Shown: positions 6,955 through 39,513, numbered from the stretch's first letter. The stretch is DNA of 64,000 nucleotides from a virus (IMGVR_UViG_3300037781_000042:1-64000); one strand, 5' to 3'. Program-made: numbers and translations. The notes: generated by a model from the letters alone, not told the origin.

Positions 6955-7329
6955 ATGTACAAATTATTTGAAGAATATTTTGGTGATTTAAACGAATCGG
7001 AATCCTTTGACGATTATCCTAAAGCAGCAACAGAAAATGCTAAAAAAGCATTAAAATGGAGAGATGAATATGGAAGAGATGTTGTAAAAGGAGGAACTAA
7101 AGTAGGATGGGCTAGAGCAAATCAATTAGCTAAAAGAGAATCTTTATCTAGAGATGTAGTTTCTAGAATGGCACAATTCAATAGACATAGAAAAAATTCT
7201 AAAATAGCAGATAAATATAAAGGCGAGCCGTGGAAGGATAACGGATATTTAAGTTGGCTTTTGTGGGGCGGAGATGCCGGAGTCGACTGGGCCATTCGTA
7301 AAATGGAACAACTTAGAAAAAATAAATAA
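6955..7329 (+). CDS. Small phage head-associated domain protein with an N-terminal capsid-targeting-like peptide
   Basis: YPKAATENAKKALKW..GGTKVGWARANQLA..LS...V.RM..F.RH...GYLSWLLWGGDAG resembles a domain seen in phage head-morphogenesis proteins. N-terminus is KLFEEYFGDLNE. Confidence 0.55.
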   Translation: MYKLFEEYFGDLNESESFDDYPKAATENAKKALKWRDEYGRDVVKGGTKVGWARANQLAKRESLSRDVVSRMAQFNRHRKNSKIADKYKGEPWKDNGYLSWLLWGGDAGVDWAIRKMEQLRKNK

Positions 7330-7336
7330 TTAAAAA

Positions 7337-7885
7337 GTGAAAAAAATAGTAGAATCATATAGAGCATATCATCTTATTAAAGAAAATAATGATGAACTTT
7401 TAGCAAAAGAAAAAGTTAAACTTACAGAATTAGAATCAAAAGAAAATCAATTAAAAAAAGAAATATCTTCTCATGAAATTGATTTAGAAGAAACTATAGA
7501 AAAGATGAAAGAAATAGATTCTGAAATTAAAGAGATTGAAGAAGAAATTAATAAAGTCAAATCTAAATCTAGTCAAGCCTGGAATGAAGTAACAAATGCT
7601 CATAGAAAAGCTAAATCAGAAGGGAGAAATCTAACACACGGGGAAATGAGTTCTATATTATTTGACTATGGAATCAAAGGAGCAGAAAAATCTGCTTTTT
7701 ATAGTGCAAAAGGTAGAATGAATGGATTAATTAAAAAGCAAGATAAATGGAGTGAACTAAATGCTCATAAATATGAATTAGAACAATCTATCGGTACAGC
7801 TAAATTAAATCTTTCTAAAACACAAAATTCTATAAAGACTACAAAAACGAATATTCAAAAATATTCTCAAACCCAAATGTTTTAA
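7337..7885 (+). CDS. Coiled-coil hypothetical protein
   Basis: 182 aa, GTG start, with long E/K heptad stretches. Confidence 0.7.
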   Translation: MKKIVESYRAYHLIKENNDELLAKEKVKLTELESKENQLKKEISSHEIDLEETIEKMKEIDSEIKEIEEEINKVKSKSSQAWNEVTNAHRKAKSEGRNLTHGEMSSILFDYGIKGAEKSAFYSAKGRMNGLIKKQDKWSELNAHKYELEQSIGTAKLNLSKTQNSIKTTKTNIQKYSQTQMF

Positions 7886-7911
7886 AAGATAATAACGTTT
7901 TCATTTTTAAC

Positions 7912-7946
7912 AATCTCTACTAATTAATTTTAGTAGAGATTTTTTT
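7912..7946 (+). terminator. Rho-independent terminator
   Basis: aatctctacta / tagtagagatt 11-bp stem followed by a T run. Confidence 0.7.
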
Positions 7947-7972
7947 ATTTAAAAAATTTTTCTTATATTACA
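7941..7972 (+). promoter_or_regulatory. Putative early promoter (TTTTTTATTTAAAAAATTTTTCTTATATTACA)
   Basis: A 32-nt identical copy lies at 22850-22881 and a near copy at about 28275-28307. Each heads a cluster of non-structural genes. Confidence 0.55.
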
Positions 7973-8006
7973 TCATGTTCAATTAACACTTATAGGAAAA
8001 AGTAAA

Positions 8007-8696
8007 ATGGGTTATACAACAGATTTCGTAGGATCGTTTAAAACTGATAAACCAGTCGATGAAAATATATTTAAATTGGTTAATGGATTAGCAGGAACGA
8101 GAAGAATGAAAAGAGAAGGTCTTCCAAAAGAATATGGAGTAGAAGGAGAGTTCTATTTTGAAGATGATGGAGATTATGGACAATCGACCAATCCTAAAAA
8201 TGGAAAAATTGTAAATTACAATCAACCTCCAAGTATTCAACCGAGTTTATGGTTACAGTGGATGTTTGAAAAAGACATGCAAACTATAGTTTGGGATCAA
8301 GGAGAAAAATTTTATTCTTATGTAAATTGGTTAGAATATTTAATTAATAGAATATTAAAGCCTTCTGGTTATGTAGTGAACGGGAAATGCGAATATCAAG
8401 GAGAAGATCGGTCTGATAGAGGAGAAATTGTTGTTGAGAATAATGTAATTTATTTGGATGGACATAAAGCCCCTGAAAAAGATTACCCTCAATATGATAT
8501 TTTAAATGCTTTTGGTTTAAAACCTTCAAAAACTTACTATAAAGATCCTCGAAAGGAAATTACTCTTTCTGAAGAAGAAGCAAAAAAGATATTAGTATCT
8601 AAGGTAGACCAAATAGAATCGGATTACTTAGAAGAAATATTAACCTATTTTATTTTTGATGACATAACTTATAAAATTATAAGAGAAAAAGGATAA
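8007..8696 (+). CDS. Conserved phage hypothetical protein
   Basis: 229 aa with GYTTDFVGSF, QPSLWLQW and WDQGEKFYSYVNWLEYLI. SD-like AGGA upstream. Confidence 0.75.
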   Translation: MGYTTDFVGSFKTDKPVDENIFKLVNGLAGTRRMKREGLPKEYGVEGEFYFEDDGDYGQSTNPKNGKIVNYNQPPSIQPSLWLQWMFEKDMQTIVWDQGEKFYSYVNWLEYLINRILKPSGYVVNGKCEYQGEDRSDRGEIVVENNVIYLDGHKAPEKDYPQYDILNAFGLKPSKTYYKDPRKEITLSEEEAKKILVSKVDQIESDYLEEILTYFIFDDITYKIIREKG

Positions 8697-9982
8697 TGAA
8701 AGATATTTTAAAAGATTGTCCCGAAAAAGAAACTCTATTACATTTAGGAACTCTTGCTGAAGAAAATGGATTTGAAATTTATTTAGCGGGAGGATTCGTA
8801 AGAGATTCTTTATTAGGAATAGAAAGTAAAGATTACGATATTGGTGTTGTAGGAGATGCTTTGGAATTTACTAAAATTCTTGAAAAAGAATTAAAAGTAA
8901 GAGCAACTATATTTAAAAGATTTGGAACTTCTGTTATTTCTTATAAAGGAAATCAATATGAATTTGTAGGAACTAGAAAAGAAGAGTATGTAAAAGAATC
9001 TAGAAATCCTATAGTTAGTATTGGAACAATGGAAGATGATATTAATAGAAGAGATTTTACTATTAATAGTATGATTTATAAATTAAATCCAAATGTAAAA
9101 GATAGACTTATTGATTTACATAATGGTCAAGAAGATTTAAAATATCAATTTATTAGATGTGTAGGAGATCCTGAAGTAGTTTATTCCGATGATCCTTTGA
9201 GAATGTTAAGAGCTATTAGATTTTCAGTAAAATTAAATTTTGCAATTGAAGAAGATACTTATGATGCTATTAAAAAGTTATCGTCTAGAATAGAAATAAT
9301 TTCAACTGAAAGAATAGTAGTTGAATTTATGAAAATGTTAAAATCAGATTATCCTGTGTACGCTATTCAAATGCTAGAAGAATCTAACTTATTAAAATAT
9401 ATTCTTCCTGAAATAAGAGAAAATTTAGATGAAAGCCTTAAAGTTTTAGAATGGGTTAGTTTTAAATCTAAAGATGAATATTTAAGATTAATATCTTTAT
9501 TAACTGTTATTGATAAAAGAAAGATTTTGGATATTTATAAAAGATTAAAATTTTCTAAAAGAGAAAGATTTAGAGCAGTAGATCTTTTAAATATGTTAAG
9601 TGCTTTTTCATCTTCTAAAAGACCTCCATTAAATATTTGTAGAGAACTTTTAATTAACAATAATTCTAGAAAAATAAAAGATTTAATTAAGCTTTTAAAA
9701 GTAGTATGTTTATTAAAAACAAATCCGTTAAAGAAACATTTAGAAATGATTCATTATTTAATAGATGAAAATGACTCTGGAAAATTTTATAATGTACATG
9801 AAAATATTTCAGGAGATTTCATAATGAATAGATTTAATGTTGAAACTGGACCAGAAATTGGTAAAATAAAAAAACATATTATAGAACAAATAATATCTGA
9901 TAATTTAGGAACTTCAAAAGAAGATATTGAAAAGTATATTGATGACAATATAGAAAAAATTAAAACTTTACCTATTAAATAG
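8696..9982 (+). CDS. cca: Class II tRNA nucleotidyltransferase (CCA-adding enzyme)
   Basis: GGFVRDSLLG..DYDI, RKEEY flexible loop, DDINRRDFTINS and DDPLRMLRAIRF. It has KRFGT rather than the poly(A)-polymerase signature. Confidence 0.85.
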   Translation: MKDILKDCPEKETLLHLGTLAEENGFEIYLAGGFVRDSLLGIESKDYDIGVVGDALEFTKILEKELKVRATIFKRFGTSVISYKGNQYEFVGTRKEEYVKESRNPIVSIGTMEDDINRRDFTINSMIYKLNPNVKDRLIDLHNGQEDLKYQFIRCVGDPEVVYSDDPLRMLRAIRFSVKLNFAIEEDTYDAIKKLSSRIEIISTERIVVEFMKMLKSDYPVYAIQMLEESNLLKYILPEIRENLDESLKVLEWVSFKSKDEYLRLISLLTVIDKRKILDIYKRLKFSKRERFRAVDLLNMLSAFSSSKRPPLNICRELLINNNSRKIKDLIKLLKVVCLLKTNPLKKHLEMIHYLIDENDSGKFYNVHENISGDFIMNRFNVETGPEIGKIKKHIIEQIISDNLGTSKEDIEKYIDDNIEKIKTLPIK

Positions 9983-9990
9983 GATATAAT
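9962..9990 (+). promoter_or_regulatory. Putative middle promoter AAAACT-N17-TATAAT
   Basis: Exact hexamers with a 17-nt spacer, overlapping the end of cca. Confidence 0.55.
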
Positions 9991-9995
9991 TAAAT

Positions 9996-10433
9996 ATGTT
10001 AATTAGTAAAGATTTATATAAAAAGATATTCATTAAGAAAATAAAGAATATTCAAGAAGTTGAAAGTATTATTTCTAAAATGAATGAATTCGGAATTTTA
10101 TTAGATCATGATTTAACAAGTTCTGACAGTGTTATTAAACTTTTAGTATTAATATCAGGAACTTCTGAAGTTAAAAATTTAGAAGATTTAATATATTGGT
10201 GGATCTTTGAAGATGTAGAAAAGAATCTCTATGATAGTAATACTGGTGAAGTAATCTATAATTTAACAGAACTTGAAGATTTTGCAAATTATGTAGTAGA
10301 AAATTTATTTGATAATAGAGTAAAGGTATCAGAAGAATACGAAAGAAATATAGAACATTTATTCTTTTATAAATGTTCTGGTGAAGTTGTCGATTTTTTA
10401 AATGATATTTTTATTAATGGAGATAAAATCTAA
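9996..10433 (+). CDS. Hypothetical protein
   Basis: 145-aa ORF immediately followed by the RNA ligase ATG. Confidence 0.7.
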   Translation: MLISKDLYKKIFIKKIKNIQEVESIISKMNEFGILLDHDLTSSDSVIKLLVLISGTSEVKNLEDLIYWWIFEDVEKNLYDSNTGEVIYNLTELEDFANYVVENLFDNRVKVSEEYERNIEHLFFYKCSGEVVDFLNDIFINGDKI

Positions 10434-11435
10434 ATGGAAAGAAAATTAGCTTCAGTTAGAACAATTAAAAATAAAGAACCTATTGAAGGTGCTGATAGAA
10501 TAGAATTAGTACATGTAGATGGATGGAAATGTGTTTCTAAAAAAGATGAATTTGAAATAGGAGATAAATGTATCTATTTTGAAATTGATTCTTTTCTACC
10601 TATAGAAGATCAATTTGAATTTCTTAGAAAGTCTTGCTATAAAAATAACTCTGTAGTAGGAGAAGGATTTAGAATAAAAACAATTCGGCTTCGGGGACAA
10701 ATCTCTCAGGGGCTTGTAATTCCAATTCCGGATGAATATAAAGAACTTGAAGAAGATACCGATTTAACTGAAGAATTAGGTGTTAAGAAATATGAACTTC
10801 CTGAAAGGTTTGGTGTTACTGATCGTAAAGGGAATTTTCCAATTGAAATCCCGAAGACTGATGAAAATAGAATTCAAAACTTAAAATCTAATAGAAATAA
10901 TTGGATGAAAGAAGAAGTAGAATATATCATCACAGAAAAATGTGAGGGTAGTTCAATGACAGTCTTTTTAAATAATGATCAGTATGGAGTATGTTCTAGA
11001 AATATGTTGTTAAATGAAGATGGTGAAGGCATATTTTCTAGAGTTGCTAGAGAATTAAATTTAAAAGAATGTTTGATTAATTATGGACATAATATTGCAA
11101 TTCAAGGTGAATTGATAGGACCTGGAGTCCAAGGAAATTATTACGATCTTAAAAAACACGAATTTAGGGTATTTAATATTTTTGATATAGATACTAGATT
11201 ATATTTGAGATGGGATGATGTTGAAAAGATATGTGAAGATTACAATTTACAAACAGTCCCTGTACTTGAGAAAAGAGTTTTAGTTATTGATGGAATGCAA
11301 GAAGAGATTCTAAAATATGCAGATGGTAATAGCATGCTTGTAAATAAGCCTAGAGAAGGCGTAGTATTTAAAACTCACGACAATTCTATTTCTTTTAAAG
11401 CTATAAATAATGAATATTTATTAAATGGAAAATAG
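10434..11435 (+). CDS. RNA ligase, DRB0094-like (Rnl2-type with N-terminal OB domain)
   Basis: MERKLASV..I..IEGADRIE...VDGWKCV..K.EF..GD.CIYFEID, RLRGQISQGL, adenylation motif TEKCEGSS, IQGELIGPGVQGN, REGVVFK and SFKAINNEYLL. Confidence 0.85.
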   Translation: MERKLASVRTIKNKEPIEGADRIELVHVDGWKCVSKKDEFEIGDKCIYFEIDSFLPIEDQFEFLRKSCYKNNSVVGEGFRIKTIRLRGQISQGLVIPIPDEYKELEEDTDLTEELGVKKYELPERFGVTDRKGNFPIEIPKTDENRIQNLKSNRNNWMKEEVEYIITEKCEGSSMTVFLNNDQYGVCSRNMLLNEDGEGIFSRVARELNLKECLINYGHNIAIQGELIGPGVQGNYYDLKKHEFRVFNIFDIDTRLYLRWDDVEKICEDYNLQTVPVLEKRVLVIDGMQEEILKYADGNSMLVNKPREGVVFKTHDNSISFKAINNEYLLNGK

Positions 11436-11985
11436 TGTAGAAATATGGACAGATGGTTCATGTCCTATGAATAGAGGTTCTAATCCTGGTGGATGGGCCT
11501 CTATTTTAGTTATTCCTGAGTCGAGATGGGAAACTATTGAAGAAAATCTAAGTATAAATTATAATAAAGAAGACAAAAAAACTTATAAATGTCTTGAAAT
11601 TTCTGGAAATGATGATACTACAACTTCTAATAGAATGGAGTTAACAGCAGTAATTGAAGGAATTAAGAAAGCTTTAGAATTAGGTTTTGAAGAAATTTTA
11701 GTTTTTAGTGATTCGGAATATACTGTAAAATCTGCAATGGTTTGGTCATTAAAATGGGCAAAAAATAAATGGCATAAAAAAATTAAAAATAAAGATCTTA
11801 TGAAAGAACTTTATACTTTATGTTCAGAAAATAATGTTAAAGTTGAATGGGTAAAAGCAAGAGATGGAAATTTTTTTAACGAAAGAGCAGATGAGTTAGC
11901 AAGAGAAGAAGCTGCTAAATTAAATGAAGAACCTGAAGAGGAAAATGAATGGATAAAAATAGATATGAACAATACTTTTATTTAA
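11425..11985 (+). CDS. rnhA: Ribonuclease HI
   Basis: DEDD set: WTDGSC, NRMELTAVI, SDSEY and NERADELA. WVKAR replaces the usual WVKAH. Confidence 0.85.
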   Translation: MENSVEIWTDGSCPMNRGSNPGGWASILVIPESRWETIEENLSINYNKEDKKTYKCLEISGNDDTTTSNRMELTAVIEGIKKALELGFEEILVFSDSEYTVKSAMVWSLKWAKNKWHKKIKNKDLMKELYTLCSENNVKVEWVKARDGNFFNERADELAREEAAKLNEEPEEENEWIKIDMNNTFI

Positions 11986-12395
11986 AGACCCATGAAGATT
12001 TGGTAAAATTTGTAAAAATGTGTCTTCAGTATAATATGAAAATAGAACCCATAGAAGATGGACGTTCTTTTGAAGAGTATTATTTACAGAAACATCAAGA
12101 TCACGATGGTAACTATCCAATGGATTATAATCGTACTAGTACAGAAGAACATTTTAATAAATATGGATGGAGAGACGCGTTAGAAATGTATTGGAATCCT
12201 GACATTCAAATTTGGGAATCTAAATATAAGAGAATGTTTTTTGCGTCAGATATAAGCAATCAAAGTTTCAGTGTTATGAACTCTGCTTCAAAAATTACTA
12301 ACGAAAAATTATTGTCTACAGAAGAAGGAAGTTTAATACCTAAAGAAATAGATTTCGATAAATATCTTGAACAGTTTAATAAAGAAGAAGTATGA
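11949..12395 (+). CDS. Hypothetical protein
   Basis: 148-aa ORF overlapping both neighbours. Confidence 0.65.
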   Translation: MDKNRYEQYFYLKTHEDLVKFVKMCLQYNMKIEPIEDGRSFEEYYLQKHQDHDGNYPMDYNRTSTEEHFNKYGWRDALEMYWNPDIQIWESKYKRMFFASDISNQSFSVMNSASKITNEKLLSTEEGSLIPKEIDFDKYLEQFNKEEV

Positions 12396-12796
12396 ACTTA
12401 AAAGAATTTAAACAAGCATTTTTTGGATCAGATGCTCAATATGAAGCATTGACTGATAAAGATAAAAATGCAAATAGATTTATGATAAATAGAATGATAG
12501 CAACACGTTATCCTTTAATTTCTAATTTTGTAAATTCTATAGGAACAGATGGAGCCGTTGTTGTAGATACTCTTAGAAAGTTTTGTAAAGAACGAGGCAT
12601 TTCTAATTTACCTTATGTTCCTACAAAAAAGAATACTGATAAAAAGAAATTTGATTGGTACCCTAAAAACAAGGAAATTTTAAAAAGATATTGTAATCAT
12701 CACCAAATAGCACTTAAAGAATTTGATGAAAGGTTAAAATGGAATCCAATAGAAACAAAAAATGAATTTACAGATTTTGAAAAAATCTTTAAATAG
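12392..12796 (+). CDS. Hypothetical protein, possibly clamp-loader small subunit (gp62-like)
   Basis: RFMINRMIA...ISNFVN weakly resembles the T4 gp62 FMxNR motif. Size fits. Confidence 0.4.
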   Translation: MNLKEFKQAFFGSDAQYEALTDKDKNANRFMINRMIATRYPLISNFVNSIGTDGAVVVDTLRKFCKERGISNLPYVPTKKNTDKKKFDWYPKNKEILKRYCNHHQIALKEFDERLKWNPIETKNEFTDFEKIFK

Positions 12797-12842
12797 AAAT
12801 TTTGTTATATAGATTATCTATGAACAAAAAATATGAAAATAA

Positions 12843-14414
12843 TTGAAAGTAAGACTTACAGCAGATAAAAATTTAATTTACGTTGAACAAGCAACTGAAT
12901 TCGAGTTGCGCCAACTTAGATTATCTTTTAATGTTAGAATTAGAAATCATTGGAATCATCCTAAAGTAAAAGCAAAAATTTGGGATGGTTATTTTAATTT
13001 TTTCAAAAAGGATAAGTATATTCCAGTCGGTCTATGGAAAAAACTATTAGACATTTGCGACAAATACAATATTACAATTAATAAGAATTTTGTAAATGAT
13101 ATTCGAGATTCTTCTATTAAAAAAGAAGATATAGAAGAATATTTTAAAGTGTTCTTTGATGGAAATAAATATCAGCCTAGAAAATATCAAAACGAAGCTG
13201 TTTATATGTTTTCTAAATATAAAAGAATAGTTGCTGAAATGGCAACTTCCGCCGGGAAAACTTTAATAATTTATATGGTCTTTCAATATATCAATCATTT
13301 AATGAAGCTCAGAGATGAAGAAAACTTTAAGATGTTGATTATAGTACCTAATATTCAATTAGTGACTCAGACGTTTCAGGATTGGCTAGATTATGATGCA
13401 GGTAAAGATTCATTTAGAGCTTTAATGGTATCAGGGGAAACTGATCATAAAGATAGAAGCTTAGATGAATATGATGTAGTAATTGGAACGTTTCAATCTT
13501 TATCTAAAAAGCCTAAAGATTGGTTTTCTGTTTTTGAATGTGTTTTTGTAGATGAATCACAAAGCGCTGGAGCCGTTTCTTTAAAGAATATTTTAACTAA
13601 GTGTGATAGAGCAGAATATAAATTAGGAATTTCAGGAACTACTAAAATAAAAGGAGATGATGCAGAATCTTTCGGGATTCAAGAACATCTTGGTCCTTTA
13701 CTTTATAAAATAAGTCCTGATCATTTAATTAAAAATGATTTTGCTACTCCTGTAAATGTAAAAGTATTTAGACTTTCTTATTTAGATAATGAGAATAGAC
13801 AAGGAATAGGAAAACTTGCAAATAGAAAAAGTTTTGATAAAGCTAAGTTATTATCTTTAGAAAAAGATTTAGCAATAGAATCTAAAAAGAGATTAAAATT
13901 TATTTTAAGTCTTTTACAGAAAACAAAAAATAATGCTTTGGTTCTTTTTGGAAGCGTAGAGAAAGGATATGGAAAAAAGATAAAAGATACTTTAAGAGAA
14001 ATGACTTCCGAAAAAGAAGTTTATTATGTAGACGGAGGAACTCCTTCAGAAAATAGAAATGAATATAAAAAGTTGATGGAAGAAGGAGATAATAAAATTT
14101 TAGTCGCTTCTTTTGGAACCTTTGCAACAGGAATTTCTATTAAAAATTTACATTATGTTTTCTTAGTTGAATCATTTAAATCAGAGACTATTATAAAACA
14201 AAGTATTGGTCGTGGTATGAGACAATTAGATGGTAAAGATAAAGTAGTTATAGTTGATATTGTAGATGATTATAGAGTTTTAGAAGAAAGAAACGGAAAA
14301 ACATATTTAAAGAAAGGACAAAAACCCAACTATTTGTATAAACAGGGTGGCGAAAGATTAGACATATATAAATCAGAAGGTTATCCAATTAAAGTTTATA
14401 AGGTATCTTTATGA
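12843..14414 (+). CDS. uvsW: UvsW-like SF2 DNA helicase
   Basis: PRKYQNEAV, ATSAGKTLII, VFVDESQ, GISGT, TFATGISIKNLH and QSIGRGMR. TTG start, with a TATATAG late-motif variant at 12806-12812. Confidence 0.9.
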   Translation: MKVRLTADKNLIYVEQATEFELRQLRLSFNVRIRNHWNHPKVKAKIWDGYFNFFKKDKYIPVGLWKKLLDICDKYNITINKNFVNDIRDSSIKKEDIEEYFKVFFDGNKYQPRKYQNEAVYMFSKYKRIVAEMATSAGKTLIIYMVFQYINHLMKLRDEENFKMLIIVPNIQLVTQTFQDWLDYDAGKDSFRALMVSGETDHKDRSLDEYDVVIGTFQSLSKKPKDWFSVFECVFVDESQSAGAVSLKNILTKCDRAEYKLGISGTTKIKGDDAESFGIQEHLGPLLYKISPDHLIKNDFATPVNVKVFRLSYLDNENRQGIGKLANRKSFDKAKLLSLEKDLAIESKKRLKFILSLLQKTKNNALVLFGSVEKGYGKKIKDTLREMTSEKEVYYVDGGTPSENRNEYKKLMEEGDNKILVASFGTFATGISIKNLHYVFLVESFKSETIIKQSIGRGMRQLDGKDKVVIVDIVDDYRVLEERNGKTYLKKGQKPNYLYKQGGERLDIYKSEGYPIKVYKVSL

Positions 14415-16361: not shown

Positions 16362-16376
16362 ATTTTAAATATGTAG

Positions 16377-16408: not shown

Positions 16409-17137
16409 ATGGAAAGAACAGAACTCATACAAGATACTCAACAGTTTCTTACTTCAGGTGGCGGAATACCTACCAAATTAAACGAAAAAGAAATCAACAG
16501 AATAATAGACGATTCTTTAAGATGGTTTTATAAAGAATATGATGAAGCTCTAGAGCCTAAATATTTTGTCGTTCCTCAATCATATTTCGAAACAAGTCAA
16601 TTTAAAACAACAAGAAAGGTGCCACTTCCAGATTGTGTTGTTTGGGTAGCTGAATGCAAAGAAGCTTATAATGTAAGTAGATTTCAATATGGGGATAGAG
16701 ATGTTCCTATTTCAAGAATGATAGCAGCTGATATTTATTTAGGATCTTATGCTTCTGATGATTTAACAAATCGTGTAGCATTTGCTTCTTATTATGATTT
16801 AGCAAAAGCATTTTTAAAAGATTGGACAAGATATGAATATTTAGATAATACAAACGAGTTAGTTATTGAAGGGGGAGAACCTAGAGAAAATTTAGCTTTA
16901 TTAACACATGCTAAAATTGAAGAAACTGCTTTATTTGATGATTATCTTTTTATAGATTATGTACGTGGAAAATGTATGGAAAGTCTTGGGAGAATGATAG
17001 GTTTTTTCCAAATGAATTTAGTAGGAGGAGCAAGTATAAATGCAAATGCTATTGAATCTAGAGGAAAAGAAATGGTTCAAGAAGTAATAGATAAAATAGA
17101 AAAACTACAACCACATAACTATGTACAATTCTGGTAA
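16409..17137 (+). CDS. gp13: Neck protein (T4 gp13-like)
   Basis: RIIDDSLRWFYKEYDEA near the N-terminus and LVGGASINANAIESRGKEMVQEVI at the C-terminus match the gp13 pattern. Confidence 0.7.
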   Translation: MERTELIQDTQQFLTSGGGIPTKLNEKEINRIIDDSLRWFYKEYDEALEPKYFVVPQSYFETSQFKTTRKVPLPDCVVWVAECKEAYNVSRFQYGDRDVPISRMIAADIYLGSYASDDLTNRVAFASYYDLAKAFLKDWTRYEYLDNTNELVIEGGEPRENLALLTHAKIEETALFDDYLFIDYVRGKCMESLGRMIGFFQMNLVGGASINANAIESRGKEMVQEVIDKIEKLQPHNYVQFW

Positions 17138-17138: not shown

Positions 17139-17786
17139 ATGAATAAAGAATTTAAGACATATAAAGAATTTGTAAATGAATCTAACGGATTTAATTTTGA
17201 TATAAAAAAATTGAGAGATGATACTATAGAAATGTTGGAACAATCTCCTGAAGGTTTTTATGTTGATTACGCAGAAGAATTTTTTCAAACGAACGGAGAT
17301 ATTTGGAACGAGTTGCAAGAAAGTTCTACAGAGGATCCTGAAGAAGTATTTGATTTTATAGTAGATAATCATTTAGAGACTTTACAATATTTCATTGAAG
17401 CTACAATAGAAGAATATCTTTATGATTTAGAAAAATATACCAAAGATTCAAACATTATTATTTATAGAGAAATTTCATGCGACGATAAGTTTTTAGAAGA
17501 ACTAAAAGAAGGAAAGGTTGAAAAACTAGGAATTTATTGGTCTTTTGAAGAGGACGCTGCTGAAGCGCATTGGGCTAAAGCGGGACATAATAGAAAAATT
17601 TTATTTGTTGCTAAAGTAAATGGTAAATATATTGACGAAGAAGGAACTTTAACTTCATGGTTACATCCTTATACAGGAAAGGAAGAAAGAGAATTAAGAA
17701 TTATAGAAGGTTCTCCTGTTTCTTTAATTGAAGTTAAAGAAGGACAAAAGAAAATAGAATTTAAAAATAAGGAATATAGAGCTTAA
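17139..17786 (+). CDS. ADP-ribosyltransferase-like protein (R-S-E type) with a capsid-targeting-like N-terminus
   Basis: IIIYREIS (R), GIYWSF (S) and EERELRI (ExE). The likely start is ATG 17139 (MNKEFKTYKEFVNE), just after the neck gene stop. Confidence 0.55.
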   Translation: MNKEFKTYKEFVNESNGFNFDIKKLRDDTIEMLEQSPEGFYVDYAEEFFQTNGDIWNELQESSTEDPEEVFDFIVDNHLETLQYFIEATIEEYLYDLEKYTKDSNIIIYREISCDDKFLEELKEGKVEKLGIYWSFEEDAAEAHWAKAGHNRKILFVAKVNGKYIDEEGTLTSWLHPYTGKEERELRIIEGSPVSLIEVKEGQKKIEFKNKEYRA

Positions 17787-18692
17787 ATGAAAAAAGAATT
17801 TTTAGGTTACCAAGAATTTATAAATGAAGGTGGAAATGCTTTTAAGAATTTAAAAAGATTTGAATCTGATAAAAAGATGAAAATTTTTGAAAGAGTAACT
17901 GAAATAATGGAGCAAGAATTAAAGTATGATTTATCTGAATACTCTATTGTAGGAAGCTTTAATTCTAAAACAGAAGAGATAGGAGACATTGATATTGCTT
18001 TATATCCTGAAAAATCTTTTAAGTTTTCTACTTTAGATGATACTTATAATAATATAGAAAAACTTTCTAATAAAGTCGGAAATTTAAAGCATTTGAAAAT
18101 AGAAGAAGAAAGAATAAGTAAAACTTTAGGAGTACTTTCATTATCTACTAAAATTGAAAAAAGAAATTTTCAAATAGATTTAATTCCGGTTCCTTCTAAG
18201 AAATGGGGCGAATGGTCGTATCATTCTCCAGATCCTGATAAATCTACTTATAAAGGTCTTTATAGAAATGCTTTATTAGAAGCAATTGCTAAATCATTGC
18301 ATTTTGATTTAGAGTATTATGAACAAAATGAAGAGACTAAATATTTTAAAGAAGGAGAAATTAAATCTTATATGAGATATAGATATTTAAGAAATGCAGG
18401 TCTTTGGAAAGTAAGAGAAAAGAATGAAGGAACACGAGTTTTTAGATATGAAAAGATAAAAGATACTTATACTCCTGTAAGTCATGACCCAGAAAAAGTA
18501 ATAAATATATTATTAGGAAAAAAGAATTTTAAAAAATATATGACATTTGAATCTGTTTTAAATGTTATTTCTAGTAAGTCTTGGAGTAATTATGAATTAC
18601 TTCCTACTATATTAGAAAATTTTAGAATAATTATAGAAGATAGACAAGGAAATGAAATTCCTTCGATAGTTCAAAATTTAATGGAAGAATAA
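17787..18692 (+). CDS. Pol-beta-superfamily nucleotidyltransferase with a capsid-targeting-like N-terminus
   Basis: VGSFNSKTEEIGDIDIAL (hG[GS]..DxD) and a third Asp in FQIDLI. N-terminus is MKKEFLGYQEFINE. Confidence 0.65.
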   Translation: MKKEFLGYQEFINEGGNAFKNLKRFESDKKMKIFERVTEIMEQELKYDLSEYSIVGSFNSKTEEIGDIDIALYPEKSFKFSTLDDTYNNIEKLSNKVGNLKHLKIEEERISKTLGVLSLSTKIEKRNFQIDLIPVPSKKWGEWSYHSPDPDKSTYKGLYRNALLEAIAKSLHFDLEYYEQNEETKYFKEGEIKSYMRYRYLRNAGLWKVREKNEGTRVFRYEKIKDTYTPVSHDPEKVINILLGKKNFKKYMTFESVLNVISSKSWSNYELLPTILENFRIIIEDRQGNEIPSIVQNLMEE

Positions 18693-33030: not shown

Positions 33031-33037
33031 TATATAG
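33029..33037 (+). promoter_or_regulatory. Putative late promoter AATATATAG
   Basis: Exact motif 23 nt before ORF 33060. Confidence 0.6.
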
Positions 33038-33059
33038 TTTATATAAAAAAATAAAAAAT

Positions 33060-33326
33060 ATGGTTGAAAATTTTGAACAATACTCAAAGATGAATGAAAC
33101 AGATTCTGAATCTTTGACTAGAAAAATAGAAGCTGACTTGTCTGAAAAGTTTTTTGAATTATCAGAAGGACCAGACGGTAGCGGAGAAAATATAGGAGAA
33201 TGGTTAGCAAATCAAATTGTAAGTCATGTTAAATCTCTTACTTACGGAGAGTACCCAGAAGAAGACGCAAGAGAATTTTTAGAAGATGTTAAAAGAGGAT
33301 GGAAAAAATCTGATTTTACAATATAA
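33060..33326 (+). CDS. Small acidic protein with a capsid-targeting-like N-terminus
   Basis: MVENFEQYSKMNE, downstream of the late motif. Confidence 0.6.
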   Translation: MVENFEQYSKMNETDSESLTRKIEADLSEKFFELSEGPDGSGENIGEWLANQIVSHVKSLTYGEYPEEDAREFLEDVKRGWKKSDFTI

Positions 33327-33347
33327 AAAAAGATATAAAAAAAAGAT

Positions 33348-33773
33348 ATGAAAAACCAAATTAAACAAGTTAAAGATTTTCGTGGTTTTATAAACGAAAG
33401 AATTTCTAATGTTACTTCAGATTATTATAATCCTGATACTAATAAAAATTATTATGATGAAGAAGATACTGATAATCGTCCATTAACAGTAGAAAATTTT
33501 AAAACTACTTTTACAGGAGAAGGAGATTATTTATATTATAGTACTGAAAAAGGTTTTATTGCATGTGATGTAGAACCTGAAGGATATACATCTCCTGAAA
33601 ATACAGAAAATTATACTGGAGTAAGTTATTTTAAAGGAAATAAAGAAGTAGAAGAATGTATTAAAGAAAAATATGATTTAAAAGTTTCAGATATTCAATA
33701 TGTTGACATAGAATATGCTAAAAATCATTTTTCGGAAAACGAAGAAATAATGAACATATTAAATAGATTTTAA
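33348..33773 (+). CDS. Acidic protein with a capsid-targeting-like N-terminus
   Basis: MKNQIKQVKDFRGFINE. Confidence 0.65.
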   Translation: MKNQIKQVKDFRGFINERISNVTSDYYNPDTNKNYYDEEDTDNRPLTVENFKTTFTGEGDYLYYSTEKGFIACDVEPEGYTSPENTENYTGVSYFKGNKEVEECIKEKYDLKVSDIQYVDIEYAKNHFSENEEIMNILNRF

Positions 33774-33796
33774 TTTTCAGAAAATTAAATAAAAAG

Positions 33797-33825
33797 TAAA
33801 CTTTTAAAGTTTTAAAGGATATAAT
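33797..33825 (+). promoter_or_regulatory. Putative middle promoter TAAACT-N17-TATAAT
   Basis: Hexamers with a 17-nt spacer upstream of primase. Confidence 0.55.
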
Positions 33826-33856
33826 TAATAAAAATTATATCCTTTTTTATTTTTAT

Positions 33857-34903
33857 ATGGCAGATTTAAAACAAATAATAGAAGAAGCATTACAAAAAAG
33901 ATTTGCAAATGAAAGATCTAAACAAAGAGTAGTAGTTGCTTCAGATAGATTAAATTTTGCATGTCCTTATTGTGGAGATTCTACTAAAAGTTCCTCAAAG
34001 AAAAGAGGAAATCTTTATTTAGAGAGCGCTTCCTATAAATGTTACAATTGTGGTCATTACTCTTCTCAGAAAAGATTTTTAAAATCTTTAGTAGAGATGG
34101 ATCTTTATTTTGAGAAGATACCTGAAAATCTTTTAGTAAATTCTAATTATGATGGTATTGCAGGATCCTTTAATCCTGCTACAATTTCTACTTTATCTAA
34201 TGACTTAGAAGAAATGGTAGAAAAATATTCTTTAACTAGAGAAAAGTTTAAAAGGTTATTTAGTTTAGTTGAAGTACAAGGAACTAAGATAGAAAAATAT
34301 TTAAATTCTAGATGTATTTTCAATTATGATAATTTCTTATATGATGAATTAAATCATAAATTATTCATTTTAAATAGAGATGCAAATTCTGATAGAATTA
34401 TAGCATATCAAATTAGAAATTTTAATAATCCTAATTTTAAATATTTAACATATAAATTAGAAACTATGTATAAGGAGTGCAGAAAGGAAATTCCTGATGA
34501 AGAAGACTTTCAGACATTAAATACTATATCAAAGTATTTTAATATTCTTAATATTAATATTAGGATGCCTATTACATATTTTGAAGGTCCTATAGATGCA
34601 TACTTTTATAAAAATGCTGTCTCTTTAACTTCTATAGAAACAAAACCAATTATAGAAACAAAAAGTACTCAATACTTATTTGATTGTGATAAAAGAGGAA
34701 ATGAAGAATCTAGAAAACTTTTAAAAGAAAAGAAAAAAGTTTTTATGTGGAGAAAGTTTTTAAAGGATATAAAAATGGAATATCCAAATCCTTACTCAAA
34801 AGTAGATTTCAATGATGTTATTATTCATTGTGCTCATAATAAATTACATCCAAATTTTGATAAATATTTTACAGACAACTCATTAGACATGATCAATATA
34901 TGA
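33857..34903 (+). CDS. gp61: DNA primase (T4 gp61-like)
   Basis: Zn finger NFACPYCGDS..KKRG...YKCYNCG and TOPRIM motifs EGPIDA and FDCD. Confidence 0.85.
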   Translation: MADLKQIIEEALQKRFANERSKQRVVVASDRLNFACPYCGDSTKSSSKKRGNLYLESASYKCYNCGHYSSQKRFLKSLVEMDLYFEKIPENLLVNSNYDGIAGSFNPATISTLSNDLEEMVEKYSLTREKFKRLFSLVEVQGTKIEKYLNSRCIFNYDNFLYDELNHKLFILNRDANSDRIIAYQIRNFNNPNFKYLTYKLETMYKECRKEIPDEEDFQTLNTISKYFNILNINIRMPITYFEGPIDAYFYKNAVSLTSIETKPIIETKSTQYLFDCDKRGNEESRKLLKEKKKVFMWRKFLKDIKMEYPNPYSKVDFNDVIIHCAHNKLHPNFDKYFTDNSLDMINI

Positions 34904-35592
34904 AAAATAATATAGGAATTTTAATTCCAACATACAAAAGAGATAAACAAATAATTAAAAGGGCTATTTCATCTGCAATTAGTCAAAGAAATTTCATTGA
35001 TTTAAATGAATATATTTTAAATATTTTTATTTGTTCTGATACTGAAAAGAAAGAAGAGCACGTAGAAGAAGCAATTAAAGAATGTTATCAGAATTCTTTT
35101 GATAATAAATTTATTTATTCTGATGATGATAAATTTACAATGGATTCGCAGATAATTACTTATTATGAAACTTTAGGTTATCATTCAAATAATTATGCAA
35201 ACGATCCAAGAAATAAATTAATTCAAATGGCATCTAAAAATAATATGGACTATGTAGTATTTTTAGATGATGATAATATACTTTTCCCAGAATACATAGA
35301 TGAATCTTTAAAAGTACTTTTAGAAGAAGATGTAGATTTTACTATTTCTCAAATACTTCATTTAGGACCTGTTAATAAAGAATTATTAGGAGAACCTCCA
35401 TTAATATTGACAGGAGAACAAGTAAAACTTCAACATATAGATACACTTCAATTTTTCTTAAAAATGCATGTTATGGAAGAACATGGATGGAATAAAGAAG
35501 AAGGATATTTAGCAGATGGATATACATTTGAATCAATAGGAGAAAAATATAAATACGCTTATACTAATAAGCTTTTAGCAATTCACATATAA
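34900..35592 (+). CDS. GT-A fold glycosyltransferase (GT2-like)
   Basis: ILIPTYKR, PRN, DYVVFLDDDN, IDTLQF and ADG. ATGA-coupled to primase. Confidence 0.8.
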   Translation: MKNNIGILIPTYKRDKQIIKRAISSAISQRNFIDLNEYILNIFICSDTEKKEEHVEEAIKECYQNSFDNKFIYSDDDKFTMDSQIITYYETLGYHSNNYANDPRNKLIQMASKNNMDYVVFLDDDNILFPEYIDESLKVLLEEDVDFTISQILHLGPVNKELLGEPPLILTGEQVKLQHIDTLQFFLKMHVMEEHGWNKEEGYLADGYTFESIGEKYKYAYTNKLLAIHI

Positions 35593-35603
35593 AGGAGACT
35601 ACA

Positions 35604-35987
35604 ATGTCTGAGATACAAAACATATTAATAGATTTACCAGAACAAATTAAAAATTCTGAATTGGAATTACTTGATTTAAATGATAAATTATCTAGTACTA
35701 AAAAGGAATTAGAATCAATAGAATCAAGTTTAATGCATTCTATATTAAATGAAATGGATGAAAAAGGAAAACCTGTTTATTCTAATGCAGAAAAAAGAAA
35801 TACAGAGCTTGCAAAAAGAAGTGCTGAATATCCAGATACTCTTGATTTAAAAAGTAGTATTGATAAATTAGAAAGACAATCTAAAGAACTTCAAATAGAA
35901 ATTAAATTTTTAAGAGATAAACAAGCAAATTATAGAGCTATAGCAGCTTTTTCAAATGAAACTTTAGTTGGTGCTTTAAATAGTTAA
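35604..35987 (+). CDS. Coiled-coil hypothetical protein
   Basis: 127 aa with SD AAGGAG. Confidence 0.7.
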   Translation: MSEIQNILIDLPEQIKNSELELLDLNDKLSSTKKELESIESSLMHSILNEMDEKGKPVYSNAEKRNTELAKRSAEYPDTLDLKSSIDKLERQSKELQIEIKFLRDKQANYRAIAAFSNETLVGALNS

Positions 35988-36014
35988 AACTATATTAATT
36001 TTTTGAAGTATAAT
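35986..36014 (+). promoter_or_regulatory. Putative middle promoter AAAACT-N17-TATAAT
   Basis: Exact hexamers with a 17-nt spacer. Flanks (AAGTATAATTAATAT) are nearly identical to the 51544 copy. Confidence 0.6.
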
Positions 36015-36050
36015 TAATATAAAGATTGTTAAATAATCAAGGAAAAACAA

Positions 36051-36623
36051 ATGAAGTTAATAATAGTTGAAGGTCCGGATAGAGTTGGTAAAAATACGTT
36101 AGTTTCAAATATAACAGATCGGTTAGATGATTATTTTTCAGTTCATTTTATCGGTCCTCCTGACGTTCCTGATCCTTTAGAGTATCAATTTACAATTCCT
36201 TTTAAATACAAAGCACAGAAAACTTCTTCTATTTTAGAACAAGAATTATCAGAAACTGTAGTTTGGAATAGATCTCACTTAGGAGAATACGTATATGGAC
36301 AAATTTATAGAAATGAAAATCCAGAAGATATTATGAAAAGAATATGGGAATTTGAAAAAGGACTTTTTTCTACCATAGGAAATGAAAATATTTATGGAAT
36401 TAATTTGTACGCAGATCCTGAATATTTAATAGGAATAGACGACGGAGAATCTTTTACAACAGATTTAGAAAAGAAGAAAATTGAAATAAATTATTTTAAA
36501 GAAGCTTTTGATAAATCCTTATTAAGAAATAAAATGGAAATTAACATTCAAGTAGATAATGGAAATTTAAAAACTCCTCAAACTATTTATGAAGAAGTAA
36601 CGACAAGATTTAATAAAATATAA
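36051..36623 (+). CDS. Deoxynucleoside monophosphate (thymidylate-like) kinase
   Basis: IIVEGPDRVGKNT P-loop and WNRSHLGEYVYG (DR-motif equivalent). Confidence 0.75.
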   Translation: MKLIIVEGPDRVGKNTLVSNITDRLDDYFSVHFIGPPDVPDPLEYQFTIPFKYKAQKTSSILEQELSETVVWNRSHLGEYVYGQIYRNENPEDIMKRIWEFEKGLFSTIGNENIYGINLYADPEYLIGIDDGESFTTDLEKKKIEINYFKEAFDKSLLRNKMEINIQVDNGNLKTPQTIYEEVTTRFNKI

Positions 36624-36650
36624 TTTTTGGGTTATGTTTTATATAGAGAA

Positions 36651-36685
36651 GCACCTATTATCCCCTTTGTAAATAGGAGCTTTTT
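36651..36685 (+). terminator. Rho-independent terminator
   Basis: gcacctatt / aataggagc stem followed by ttttt. Confidence 0.5.
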
Positions 36686-36689
36686 CTTT

Positions 36690-36698
36690 AATATATAG
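36690..36698 (+). promoter_or_regulatory. Putative late promoter AATATATAG
   Basis: Exact motif before clpP. Confidence 0.6.
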
Positions 36699-36731
36699 AA
36701 AGTAATCATTCATTCAAACATAGGAAAAAAC

Positions 36732-37334
36732 TTGAATAAATTATCAAATCCTTTAATTATTACTAAATCTCAGTCCGGAGAAAAAGCTTACGATTTACAT
36801 TCATTATTGTTTAAAGAAAGAAAAATAATGATTAATTCTGATATAGATGAAGATGTATCTCAATCAATAGTATCTCAATTATTACATTTAGATGAAGAAG
36901 ATTCAAATGAAGAAATTATTCTTTTTATAAATTCTCCTGGTGGAAGTGTTACTGACGGTTTAGCAATTTATGATACTATTCAATTTATAGATGCTCCAGT
37001 TACTACAGTATGTGTAGGTCTTGCTGCTTCAATGGCCCAAGTTTTATTATGCGCAGGAGAACCTGGAAGAAGATTTTCTTTTCCTAATTCTAGAATAATG
37101 ATGCATCAGCCTTCAGGTGGAACTTGGGGACAAGGATCGGATATAGAAATTTATCATAATGAGATGGTAAAAATAAAGGATCTACTTTATGGAATAATTC
37201 AAAAACATACTGGAAAATCTTATGAAGAAATTAAAAAACACGCAGATAGAGATTATTGGATGTCTCCTAAAGAAGCTAAAAAATATAATCTAATAGATAA
37301 AATTATTAAATCTAAAAAAGATTTATTTAGCTAA
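36732..37334 (+). CDS. clpP: ClpP protease proteolytic subunit
   Basis: INSPGGSVTDGLAIYDT, AASMA (Ser), MMHQP (His) and DRDYWMS (Asp). TTG start. Confidence 0.93.
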   Translation: MNKLSNPLIITKSQSGEKAYDLHSLLFKERKIMINSDIDEDVSQSIVSQLLHLDEEDSNEEIILFINSPGGSVTDGLAIYDTIQFIDAPVTTVCVGLAASMAQVLLCAGEPGRRFSFPNSRIMMHQPSGGTWGQGSDIEIYHNEMVKIKDLLYGIIQKHTGKSYEEIKKHADRDYWMSPKEAKKYNLIDKIIKSKKDLFS

Positions 37335-38696
37335 TTCTTCTTCTAGAACATAATAAAGAGTTTCATTTATATTTTCTTCATTTAGAAAATAATCATTATC
37401 AATAGATTTGATAGTATCGATTAAGAAACTTGAAAAGTTTGCTGTTTCTCTCAGGCCTACTAAATAAAGTAGGGCATTAGGAATACTTTCTTTTTCTTTT
37501 ATTATCATGATAGTAGAATCAAAATTCCAATCTATTTTACTATTAAAAAATCCTTCTAAATAATTTACTGTCATTTTAAATATTTCAGAATTTTTTAATT
37601 GTTGATTTAACATCCATAAATTTCTTAATATCATTTGGACAGTATCTGAATCTTGAAATGCTAATAGTTCATGCAGATGTGTTATAGTATGATCAGGAAA
37701 AAGTTCTTTAACATTTTCAGAAAGTCTTACACTGTCAACCCATTCTATCTCAAGGTCTTCATATAATCCTTCTCCATACACTTCATAATTTTCGATATAT
37801 TCTAGTATTTCATTCATAGGTATATTATCAATAGAATCATCTAAATCATGATAATTTAAAAATGATTCAAATACATTGCCTCTAGGTTTAACTATTAAAT
37901 AACCATCTTGAAATATTAAAGTACTATTTGCAGCGTATAAGAAATTATCAAGGACTGAATCATTATTAATAATTCTTTCTTTAAGTATTTTCCCTATAAC
38001 TTTTCTAGCATTTGTAAATGGAATGTCGGTAAGTTCTACTTCACTATCATATTCATTCATAAATTGGCCAGATTCAAAGTGTAACTGATATTTGTCTTCA
38101 GGATTTTCCTTGCTTATAAAAATATAAAGTGGTCCATCTTCTGTATATTCATTAAACATTGAATCATCATCTTTAGCAGCAGTACACCATCTAGTTCCTT
38201 TTCCATAATAACAGGCAGCATTATGAGTTTCTGGAACTATGACTAAAAATTCATCATCTTCATAGATAAGTTTAGCCTCATCATTTTTAATTTCTTTTTC
38301 TATGTCTCTATTTGATTTAGTTTCTGAGTCATCAAATTTAAGTACTTCTTTTGTTAATTCAGGAAGAGATTTATAATCAAAGATATTCGAAGAAAGACCT
38401 TTTTCTTTAAGTACTTTCATTCTACTTAATTTATCGAAAGATTTTAATATTTCATTAAATTTGTAAAGGTCTTCTTTTTTAACGAGTTTTTCGCTTTTCT
38501 TTCTAAGGTTTAACATCCATTTAGAATATTTTCCTATTTTTCTAACTTCTCCTTTATCATCTAAAAGAGTAGTTGGATCAGTTTTGACTATTGATAAAAA
38601 GGTTTCTTTATCAATTGAATTGTAATATTTATCATGAATTTCTAACGGAGTAGCTAATTCAAATAAAAAATCTTTAAATGGAAGAAATGTTTTCAT
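37323..38696 (-). CDS. Conserved phage protein (PcfJ-like core) with a capsid-targeting-like N-terminus
   Basis: PETHNAACYYGKGTRWCTAA..FNEY..DGPLYIFI..KYQLHF motif. N-terminus is MKTFLPFKDFLFE. Confidence 0.6.
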   Translation of the reverse strand: MKTFLPFKDFLFELATPLEIHDKYYNSIDKETFLSIVKTDPTTLLDDKGEVRKIGKYSKWMLNLRKKSEKLVKKEDLYKFNEILKSFDKLSRMKVLKEKGLSSNIFDYKSLPELTKEVLKFDDSETKSNRDIEKEIKNDEAKLIYEDDEFLVIVPETHNAACYYGKGTRWCTAAKDDDSMFNEYTEDGPLYIFISKENPEDKYQLHFESGQFMNEYDSEVELTDIPFTNARKVIGKILKERIINNDSVLDNFLYAANSTLIFQDGYLIVKPRGNVFESFLNYHDLDDSIDNIPMNEILEYIENYEVYGEGLYEDLEIEWVDSVRLSENVKELFPDHTITHLHELLAFQDSDTVQMILRNLWMLNQQLKNSEIFKMTVNYLEGFFNSKIDWNFDSTIMIIKEKESIPNALLYLVGLRETANFSSFLIDTIKSIDNDYFLNEENINETLYYVLEEELAK

Positions 38697-38856
38697 TAAT
38701 CTACTTTTTCTATTTTACATTTTGTACTTAAATATCCTCTATAATCTAAACAGTATTTTCTGTTTTTATTAAATTCTTTTTTAATCATTTCATAACCGGT
38801 ATCTCCATCTGGTATTTCAATGACTCTATTTCTTTTATCCATTGTAGGTTTCATAA

Positions 38857-39513
38857 TTAACTAAAGTATTTATCATATAAAGAAGAAAGACCATCACTCG
38901 CATATTTATAAACCATTCCAAATAAAGAAAGTTTTTCTCCATCTATTTCAAAGTTTTCTCCACAAATAACTCCATTTACAGCTTCATGAACCATTTTAGG
39001 ATTTAATATTTGATCTTGAATATTGTGGTAAATTCCAGAAGATAAAAAAGAAGTTGATACTGGAAGACCTAAAAATTTTAAAATTTTGATAAAGATTTTA
39101 TCGCTTAACCAATATTTCATAGATCCTGCAATTCCTGCAGAAAATGCACTACAAAAATCTGCTTCTTTATCATCATCTAATATATCTGTTCCTAATTGTT
39201 CAATTGCATGAACTATTCCATAAGTGAACATATACCAAAAGATGCTTCCTTTTACCATTCCTAATTGTTTAGCAATCGGTGAAATGATTCCAGCAGAAAC
39301 TTCTATTAATAAAGTTCTATTGAAATTAATAGAACTTAAAAAACCTGTAAATTCATATAATTCTTTATCTGTAGTAGCAAGTTCTGTAGATTTAATTAAC
39401 TCGTAATTTTCTTTTCCGCCAGCTCTTTCTATTAACAATTCTTCTGTTATAAATAAAGTTTCGGGAATTGTATTTAAAGGAGTATTAAATTCTGAATATT
39501 GAGTAATTGACAT
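38857..39513 (-). CDS. Hypothetical protein with hydrophobic helices
   Basis: 218 aa, preceded by a minus-strand late motif at 39539-39547. Confidence 0.7.
   Translation of the reverse strand: MSITQYSEFNTPLNTIPETLFITEELLIERAGGKENYELIKSTELATTDKELYEFTGFLSSINFNRTLLIEVSAGIISPIAKQLGMVKGSIFWYMFTYGIVHAIEQLGTDILDDDKEADFCSAFSAGIAGSMKYWLSDKIFIKILKFLGLPVSTSFLSSGIYHNIQDQILNPKMVHEAVNGVICGENFEIDGEKLSLFGMVYKYASDGLSSLYDKYFS

Follow-up and report, generated by a model that had tools for sequence, protein, structure and literature searches.

Short N-terminal leaders resembling the phage T4 capsid-targeting sequence on unrelated proteins of an uncultured jumbo phage

Tagged genes of the window

The stretch IMGVR_UViG_3300037781_000042:1-64000 (the window, 64,000 nucleotides) forms the beginning of an IMG/VR virus record of 211,581 bp (G+C 27%), in which genome-wide gene calling gave 274 genes. 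Our subject is a family of short N-terminal leaders, or tags, carried by otherwise unrelated predicted proteins of this phage, which a first-pass annotation had likened to the capsid-targeting sequence (CTS) of phage T4. The nearest matches of the capsid protein, at 29-37% identity, are in Lak megaphages, Sphingomonas phage PAU, Chryseobacterium phages MA9V-1/2 and Tenacibaculum phage PTm1, and by its sequence the phage is an uncultured member of a distant T4-related jumbo-phage clade, related to phage PAU. Relatives were detected at the protein level only, a megablast search with 12 kb against GenBank phages giving no match. The isolated members of the PAU/PTm1/MA9V clade were grown on Bacteroidota, with the exception of PAU, whose recorded host is Sphingomonas.

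The leaders are 13-20 amino acids (aa) long and come in two flavours. Type A, MNKEFKTYKEF[IL]NE[S], is found mostly on proteins of 200-540 aa, and type B, MKKE[NQ]RIVESF..[FY]..[IL]NE, mostly on small acidic proteins. Among the confident tags, those in which a site can be recognised end in [ILVMF]-[NK]-E; two type-B leaders lack such a site, and the leader of gene 37323-38696 (minus strand) ends in L-F-E. All eight N-termini cited by the first-pass annotation are present at their positions, and seven of the leaders end in hydrophobic-x-Glu, the one at 39513 (minus strand) being without this ending. The genes concerned, with the promoter-like motif that precedes the first of them, are as follows (profile scores in bits).

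6924..6931, plus strand: ATATATAG late-promoter-like motif, upstream of 6955
6955..7329, plus strand: tagged candidate cargo gene, 124 aa; leader MYKLFEEYFGDLNE (6955-6996), predicted cut before SESFDDYP
7337..7885, plus strand: tagged candidate cargo gene, 182 aa, GTG start, coiled-coil-like; leader MKKIVESYRAYHLIKE (7337-7384), type B, 18.0 bits
17139..17786, plus strand: tagged candidate cargo gene, 215 aa; leader MNKEFKTYKEFVNE (17139-17180), type A, 34.5 bits
17787..18692, plus strand: tagged candidate cargo gene, 301 aa; leader MKKEFLGYQEFINE (17787-17828), predicted cut before a conserved GGNAF, type A, 25.4 bits
33060..33326, plus strand: tagged candidate cargo gene, small and acidic, 88 aa; leader MVENFEQYSKMNE (33060-33098), type B, 17.2 bits
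33348..33773, plus strand: probably tagged small acidic gene, 141 aa; leader MKNQIKQVKDFRGFINE (33348-33398)
37323..38696, minus strand: possibly tagged gene, 457 aa, of a leucine-rich-repeat-associated paralogue family; leader MKTFLPFKDFLFE (38658-38696)

Profiles were trained solely on tags outside the window, so that circularity was avoided, and 5,480 shuffled N-termini served as the control; the best shuffles scored 13.9 bits for type A (99.9th percentile 9.5) and 12.3 bits for type B. The scan recovered six genes of the window, 17139, 17787 and 33348 as type A and 7337, 33060 and 6955 as type B. The gene at 7337, second in the 6955 operon, had been rated a weak match; since it reaches 18.0 bits against 12.3 for the best shuffle, it is a good type-B tag. 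The 6955 gene itself scores 13.8 bits with the type-B profile and has ATATATAG 24 nucleotides (nt) upstream, and the motif lies 23 nt upstream of the 33060 gene. For the second gene of the latter operon, 33348, the type-A score of 12.1 bits is above the 99.9th percentile of the shuffles and below their maximum. The true start of the 17139 gene is the ATG at 17139, immediately past the upstream stop, and an 82%-identical orthologue likewise begins MNKEFKTYKEFINES.

The 457-aa gene on the minus strand, whose start is the position 38696 named in the first-pass annotation, was recovered by neither the type-A nor the type-B profile. Its assignment comes solely from the paralogue alignment, in which its first 13 residues extend beyond the untagged paralogues; its leader resembles the MA9V-1 tags MKNFFSFINEA and MKTFTCFINEA. 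The gene at 38857..39513 (minus strand), which starts MSITQYSEF and had been listed as a weak match, was rejected as tagged, with a type-A score of 0.6 bits and no hydrophobic-N-E site near its N-terminus. The first gene of the 17139/17787 operon, 16409-17137, has TKLNE/K (slash, predicted cut) at residues 22-26 without an aromatic tag core, and this may be a longer propeptide or chance.

Distribution of the leaders in the genome

Tagged genes had been placed within 33 kb, an under-count: the system spans the whole genome in its two flavours, 23 genes being tagged with confidence and a further 11 or so being possible cases. The motif [FYW]xx[FYW]x1-4[ILVMF]NE starts 18 times within the first 15 residues, compared with 7 matches in 63,560 internal positions (one of these being a mis-called start), an N-terminal enrichment of about 40-fold (Poisson P ~6e-23), and chance is excluded as its origin. 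The tripeptides hydrophobic-N-E (h-N-E) likewise have their frequency peak at residues 10-20. We took as presumed early genes the 97 small genes of a minus-strand block at 62.9-125 kb. A tight tag is present in none of these 97 and in 18 of the 177 others (Fisher P 4.7e-4), so that, as far as the sequence shows, the motif is not equally common at the N-termini of presumed early genes.

A late-promoter-like motif, ATATATAG (extended consensus AATATATAGWYTATA), has 21 genomic copies; all but one lie in non-coding DNA, which makes up 4% of the genome. The intergenic copies point at a gene start 4-62 nt downstream, with the exception of 76878 (minus strand), where no called gene is nearby. Besides the copy at 6924..6931, the window holds the following.

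Starts 2519, 5234, 16378, 33030, 36691, 39546 (minus strand), 39556, 53253, 58838 and 60872: further ATATATAG copies

The motif stands in front of large virion genes and of the genes for capsid protein, protease-scaffold and tail sheath, among others. The tagged operons have it in common with capsid protein, protease and sheath, and no tagged operon lies in the presumed early block. The earlier statement that a late motif lies upstream of every tagged gene holds directly for 6955, 33060 and 39513 (minus strand), the last being the start of the rejected gene 38857-39513, which sits directly behind a copy; for the others it is true at the operon level, as they take the second or third place behind such a motif.

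Two further observations concern the motif itself. Divergent head-to-head pairs are found at 39539-39563 and 76871-76897 (ctatatat..gcaaaATATATAG), and at 76890, 147063, 154459 and 160072 (minus strand) just 4 nt lie between the end of the motif and the ATG, a spacing that suggests leaderless or very short-leader late mRNAs. As to base composition, the large genes 39589-47912 and 53285-58813 have a G+C of 36-37% (window 40000-48000 and 52000-56000), against 24-28% in most of the remaining window.

The leader as a detachable module

All-against-all BLAST of the mature parts revealed a single group of similar proteins, the leucine-rich-repeat paralogue family, to which five tagged genes belong (144956, 170179, 205420, 148175 and 37323); the remaining 20 motif-bearing proteins have no similarity outside the leader. 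Within this family, four tandem untagged paralogues (176447-182882, minus strand) start with M-S-L-K exactly where the tagged copies resume after ..LNE/S. The tagged form of the leucine-rich-repeat-associated family is scattered among late genes, at 148175-149659 (minus strand), 162367-163989 (plus strand) and 152162-153394 (minus strand). Homologues of two window cargos behave alike: of the 17 found for the 17787 protein (24-70% identity), 15 have differing leaders that end in [ILF]-x-E/GG and two start directly at M-GG, while most of the 120 listed homologues of the 6955 protein begin with lineage-specific leaders like MKxIKLFEEFINE, some start directly at the core, and some hold an extra module between two such sites. 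As judged from these alignments, the leader is a separable unit, its end coinciding exactly with the start of the untagged paralogues and homologues. The tagged and untagged leucine-rich-repeat copies would represent a natural experiment in packaged and not-packaged proteins, and as to whether the leader is sufficient, this presence and absence among paralogues is no more than suggestive.

These comparisons also bear on whether the similarity could come from common descent, or from an element of the DNA (a duplication, a recombination cassette or a translation-initiation element), with no selected protein signal. That a single paralogue family supplies five of the tagged genes is in favour of such an origin, as is the strong AT codon bias, which makes the DNA of the tags look alike. 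However, the other 20 motif-bearing proteins are unrelated past the leader, the orthologues at 24-70% identity keep a leader of different sequence with the same end point, and leader-bearing and leaderless copies occur within one family. The tag is conserved at the protein level: a DNA-level element was rejected, as the upstream DNA is not conserved and the tag codons contain synonymous changes. We therefore consider an origin of this kind very improbable.

Prohead protease, scaffold and capsid protein

Towards the end of the window lie the genes of a prohead protease and of the major capsid protein.

58895..60862, plus strand: prohead protease-scaffold fusion, 655 aa; gp21-type protease domain at about 58967-59314, in the N-terminal third
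60919..62691, plus strand: gp23-type major capsid protein, 590 aa; Pfam Gp23 E 8e-30; directly downstream of the protease-scaffold

The protease domain matches Pfam Peptidase_S77 with 56.3 bits (cut-off 27 bits) and aligns with the T4 gp21 structure 5JBL, the His in GEIDHP and the Ser in ISSRS standing at the catalytic positions, that is, opposite the residues which we take to be those mutated to Ala in the crystal. The scaffold part contains about ten repeats of 14 aa, ..NVNK.I[EQ]YSEY[LIV]AE, at aa 304-468 (nt 59804-60298), and several h-N-E sites besides the [LIV]-A-E repeat ends. The repeats all resemble the T4 CTS, and each closes with a protease-type site. The heptad [FYW]x[EDQ][FYW][ILVM][ANS]E occurs 16 times in the 67,670 residues of the proteome, namely in eight N-terminal tags, six scaffold repeats and two other places, which suggests that one tag may correspond to a single scaffold unit. 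In the capsid protein, aa 1-26 (60919-60996) form a predicted propeptide with a predicted cut at VLKE/T, and the pattern W-x3-[LI]-x-E (W20, E26) is invariant in the alignment with the capsid proteins of PAU, MA9V-1 and PTm1, whose aligned sites are KLNE/S, FINE/A and QITE/S, respectively.

Another reading is that the shared N-termini are recognition leaders of a modifying enzyme (of the type of ribosomally synthesised and post-translationally modified peptides, RiPPs, with for example radical-SAM/SPASM enzymes) or some other sorting or secretion signal, functions that would have no relation to the capsid. Against such a role, no Radical_SAM or SPASM domain was found in the 211-kb record, in a search whose controls were positive; the leaders are hydrophilic or amphipathic and lack a hydrophobic core, in which they differ from the lipoprotein and Sec signals on other genes of this genome; and they end in a protease-type site that recurs in the scaffold. 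The likelihood that the leaders serve in this way is, in our judgment, very slight.

Leaders in related phages

An S77 protease is present in all three cultured relatives, PAU, MA9V-1 and PTm1. It is fused to the scaffold in PTm1 (564 aa) and MA9V-1 (1347 aa) as well, and in PAU the two are separate genes. In PAU, 17 genes start with MK[ST]xxxL[YF]E, compared with none for a reversed-pattern control; among them are the scaffold, gp152, and two whose annotation is 'internal capsid protein', and the PAU tag ends in KLNE, as does the site of the PAU capsid protein. The MA9V-1 tags read MK.F..FINEA where the capsid site is EFINE/A, and the 1347-aa protease fusion of this phage is studded with xNE[SA]. 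By sequence comparison, then, PAU and MA9V-1 have tag dialects of their own, each in agreement with the site at which the capsid protein of that phage is predicted to be cleaved.

Outside the cultured phages, an IMG/VR search with two back-translated tag DNA patterns found one related contig only, so the exact tag dialect is rare in that database; this 32-kb contig carries an exact type-A tag on a leucine-rich-repeat orthologue and a variant tag on an AAA ATPase. An IMG/VR search for related loci with the nucleotidyltransferase and the protease-scaffold as queries found none. In the related contig IMGVR_UViG_3300037590_000072 (539-3517), a 518-aa AAA ATPase with a likeness to MoxR, as read from the sequence, starts MNKPVKNYTTFINE, and an adjacent 471-aa gene, in which a HEILH zincin-type motif was spotted by eye, starts MYNYKTKYVQLFE; the two could be a tagged ATPase pair. 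Five consecutive unrelated genes of the JGI contig Ga0502754_000007 (8727-11616) begin with MK+IKLFE[EQ]F[IVK].E, one of them (180 aa) with a weak Pfam match to Acb1, an anti-CBASS nuclease, and one with DUF5824. The region looks like an internal-protein-type cargo locus of another uncultured phage. We found no publication describing tags in the PAU/PTm1/MA9V/Lak clade, and none bearing the strings KLFEEF, LFEEFINE or YKEFINE, although results of the latter search were swamped and matches may have been missed.

Candidate cargo proteins

Most of the cargos are without a match in PHROGs and Pfam searches. The 17139 protein consists of the leader, a helical domain and a C-terminal ADP-ribosyltransferase (ART)-like domain (aa 104-212), and its AlphaFold2 (AF2) model has a predicted local distance difference test (pLDDT) score of 87.8. 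The top structural matches of the C-terminal domain in VIA-align are ART toxins and PARPs, at middling Z of 4-5.9; Foldseek against the Protein Data Bank (PDB) gave no significant match (E 0.2 or worse), and there was no Pfam ART match. Across 46 homologues, residues R110, Y133-W134 and E183-x-E185 show little or no variation, and in the query S135 follows W134; many of the homologues bear leaders of their own. The protein is a probable ART, recalling T4 Alt. The same type of domain recurs in giant polyvalent-type proteins together with NUDIX, GNAT, 2H-phosphoesterase and ART-PolyVal domains.

The 17787 protein has a nucleotidyltransferase fold of the Pol-beta superfamily, with Foldseek matches to Pol beta/lambda and OAS. 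Its AF2 model has a pLDDT below 50 for residues 1-15 and about 88 for the remainder, and the leader is thus predicted to be disordered and to lie outside the fold. The core of the 6955 protein is a very widespread and highly conserved phage domain with more than 250 homologues. Elsewhere in the genome the tagged cargo includes leucine-rich-repeat proteins and a GH19 wall hydrolase. The description of the cargo as a diverse set of effector enzymes was overstated: only two cargos of the window look enzymatic (ART-like and nucleotidyltransferase-like), and many of the others are leucine-rich-repeat or small acidic proteins. Moreover, a tag alone does not mean 'effector', because the PAU scaffold bears one.

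The location of some tagged genes raises the question of which part of the virion their products would enter. Type-B genes cluster at 132745-134759 and 138317-140418, on either side of the gene for the tail sheath (134882-138238), and tagged leucine-rich-repeat genes lie directly downstream of very large unannotated, probably structural genes. The leaders could accordingly be propeptides that are removed by the protease and send proteins to another virion compartment, or to an assembly or decoration role (head fibres, neck, tail), rather than marking injected cargo; the presence of head fibres in the relative PTm1 (PMC7824862) and the tag on the PAU scaffold itself would agree with this. Yet proteases of the gp21 type are described as acting within the prohead (PMC5694885), the tag agrees with the scaffold repeats and with the kind of site predicted for the capsid protein, and the ART-like and nucleotidyltransferase-like cargos have no obvious structural role. 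We regard a destination outside the head interior as unlikely, although it is the least remote of the alternatives considered here.

Proposed mechanism

The first-pass annotation had proposed a modular, T4-like address tag that is removed after Glu by a gp21-type protease, and every sequence-level test that we ran agrees with this. We put at roughly 0.8 the probability that the leaders are T4-type capsid-targeting propeptides. In the sequence of events that we envisage, the tagged proteins would be made late in infection, and the amphipathic leader of 13-20 residues, with the core Y-x-E-F-[ILV]-N-E, would bring them into the scaffolding core of the prohead, probably by imitating one 14-residue scaffold repeat (..Y-S-E-Y-[LIV]-A-E). 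After closure of the shell, the scaffold-fused gp21-type serine protease would cut after the Glu of [ILVM]-[NA]-E, and these cuts would dissolve the scaffold, trim the capsid protein (VLKE/T) and release the leaders. The mature cargo would then stay in the head with the DNA, available for delivery into the host at the next infection.

A more speculative extension, which we hold to be possible and somewhat doubtful, is that the tag works as a mimic of the scaffold: proteins with one unit would co-polymerise with the scaffold of about ten units and be freed by the very cuts that dissolve it, and the tag flavours would encode stoichiometry or position, as a readable address code. Type A would then mark large, probably low-copy proteins (enzyme-like and leucine-rich-repeat) and type B small acidic, probably high-copy ones, and the lineage-specific tags matched to the capsid and scaffold sites of their own phage would be the 'address code'. 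If so, the injected proteome and the anti-defence arsenal of the first minute of infection might be predictable from sequence in uncultured phages.

Several points weigh against the interpretation of the leaders as capsid-targeting propeptides. The type-B leaders of 138317, 138561, 139472 and 139707 are without a clear h-N-E site, and several type-B genes flank the tail sheath and not head genes. The same four leaders keep the RIVESF/LYESF start despite having no clear cut site. The small cargos are mostly acidic (isoelectric point 4-5), whereas the T4 internal proteins are basic, and 33348 and 37323-38696 (minus strand) are weakly supported as tagged genes. A predicted complex of the scaffold repeats (aa 340-475) with the 17139 protein had a score of 0.00, which is no answer and evidence neither way. 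The CheckV completeness estimate of the 211,581-bp record is 82%. Finally, virion mass spectrometry or N-terminomics for the clade was not found in the papers searched, the MA9V-1 paper having a sodium dodecyl sulfate (SDS) gel only.

Proteins that enter the cell together with the DNA of a phage are active before the first of its genes is expressed; in T4 they include the anti-restriction protein IPI* and the ADP-ribosyltransferase Alt, which modifies RNA polymerase. A recognisable and presumably cleavable tag allows a computational list of candidate injected proteins to be drawn up, here of about 23-34 in a poorly known jumbo-phage clade, among them the ART-like protein, the Pol-beta-type nucleotidyltransferase, the GH19 wall hydrolase and a number of leucine-rich-repeat proteins. 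As the families of homologues show, the same principle is widespread in uncultured phages, with lineage-specific dialects. The most interesting new element is the tag-like repeats of the scaffold, which suggest how the T4 CTS finds the core.

Comparison with known systems

The system most similar to the one described here is that of T4, whose CTS, MKTYQEFIAE, is cleaved once by the head protease (PMC8442874; PMC5694885). The CTS of IPI, IPII and IPIII and the propeptide of Alt are removed by gp21 (Mullaney & Black 1996, cited in PMC5694885; PMC8442874; PMC3012670), and the T-even internal proteins form a diverse set with the CTS as the sole common part (PMC3012670). In both phages a short N-terminal leader with a near-identical core (KTYKEFINE and T4 KTYQEFIAE are identical at seven of nine positions) and an [IL]-x-Glu end stands on otherwise unrelated proteins, next to a gp21-type protease and a gp23-type capsid protein, and the ART-like cargo has its counterpart in Alt. 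Taken together, the phage appears to be a much enlarged case of the mechanism known from T4. It differs from T4 in having about 23-34 tagged genes (8-12% of the genome) instead of a handful, two tag flavours, a preferred site h-N-E instead of h-A-E, a protease fused to a scaffold of tag-like 14-aa repeats, and small cargos that are mostly acidic instead of basic. It is also distant from T4 (capsid protein against Pfam Gp23, E 8e-30), has relatives that infect Bacteroidota, and is known from sequence alone.

The giant phages phiKZ, 201phi2-1 and SPN3US are likewise jumbo phages with a gp21-homologous protease, which cuts after Glu and processes many internal head proteins for ejection (PMC5694885, PMC7411985, PMC10052503). 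Their propeptides are mostly long (>100 residues), with no short portable consensus (PMC5694885), in contrast to the T4-like leaders of 13-20 residues found here. Closer to our phage are PAU, MA9V-1 and PTm1, with which it has the S77 protease in common, the scaffold fusion in the case of PTm1 and MA9V-1, and tags that end like the capsid site of the same phage in the case of PAU and MA9V-1, while the tag sequence is lineage-specific relative to the latter two. Outside this circle, encapsulins and the Dar system of phage P1 are alike in that a portable peptide or an ordered pathway puts diverse cargo inside an HK97-fold shell. The cargo-loading peptides of encapsulins sit at the C-terminus, bind directly to the shell and stay uncleaved, and the loading of Dar head proteins in P1 is hierarchical, with no common cleaved tag.

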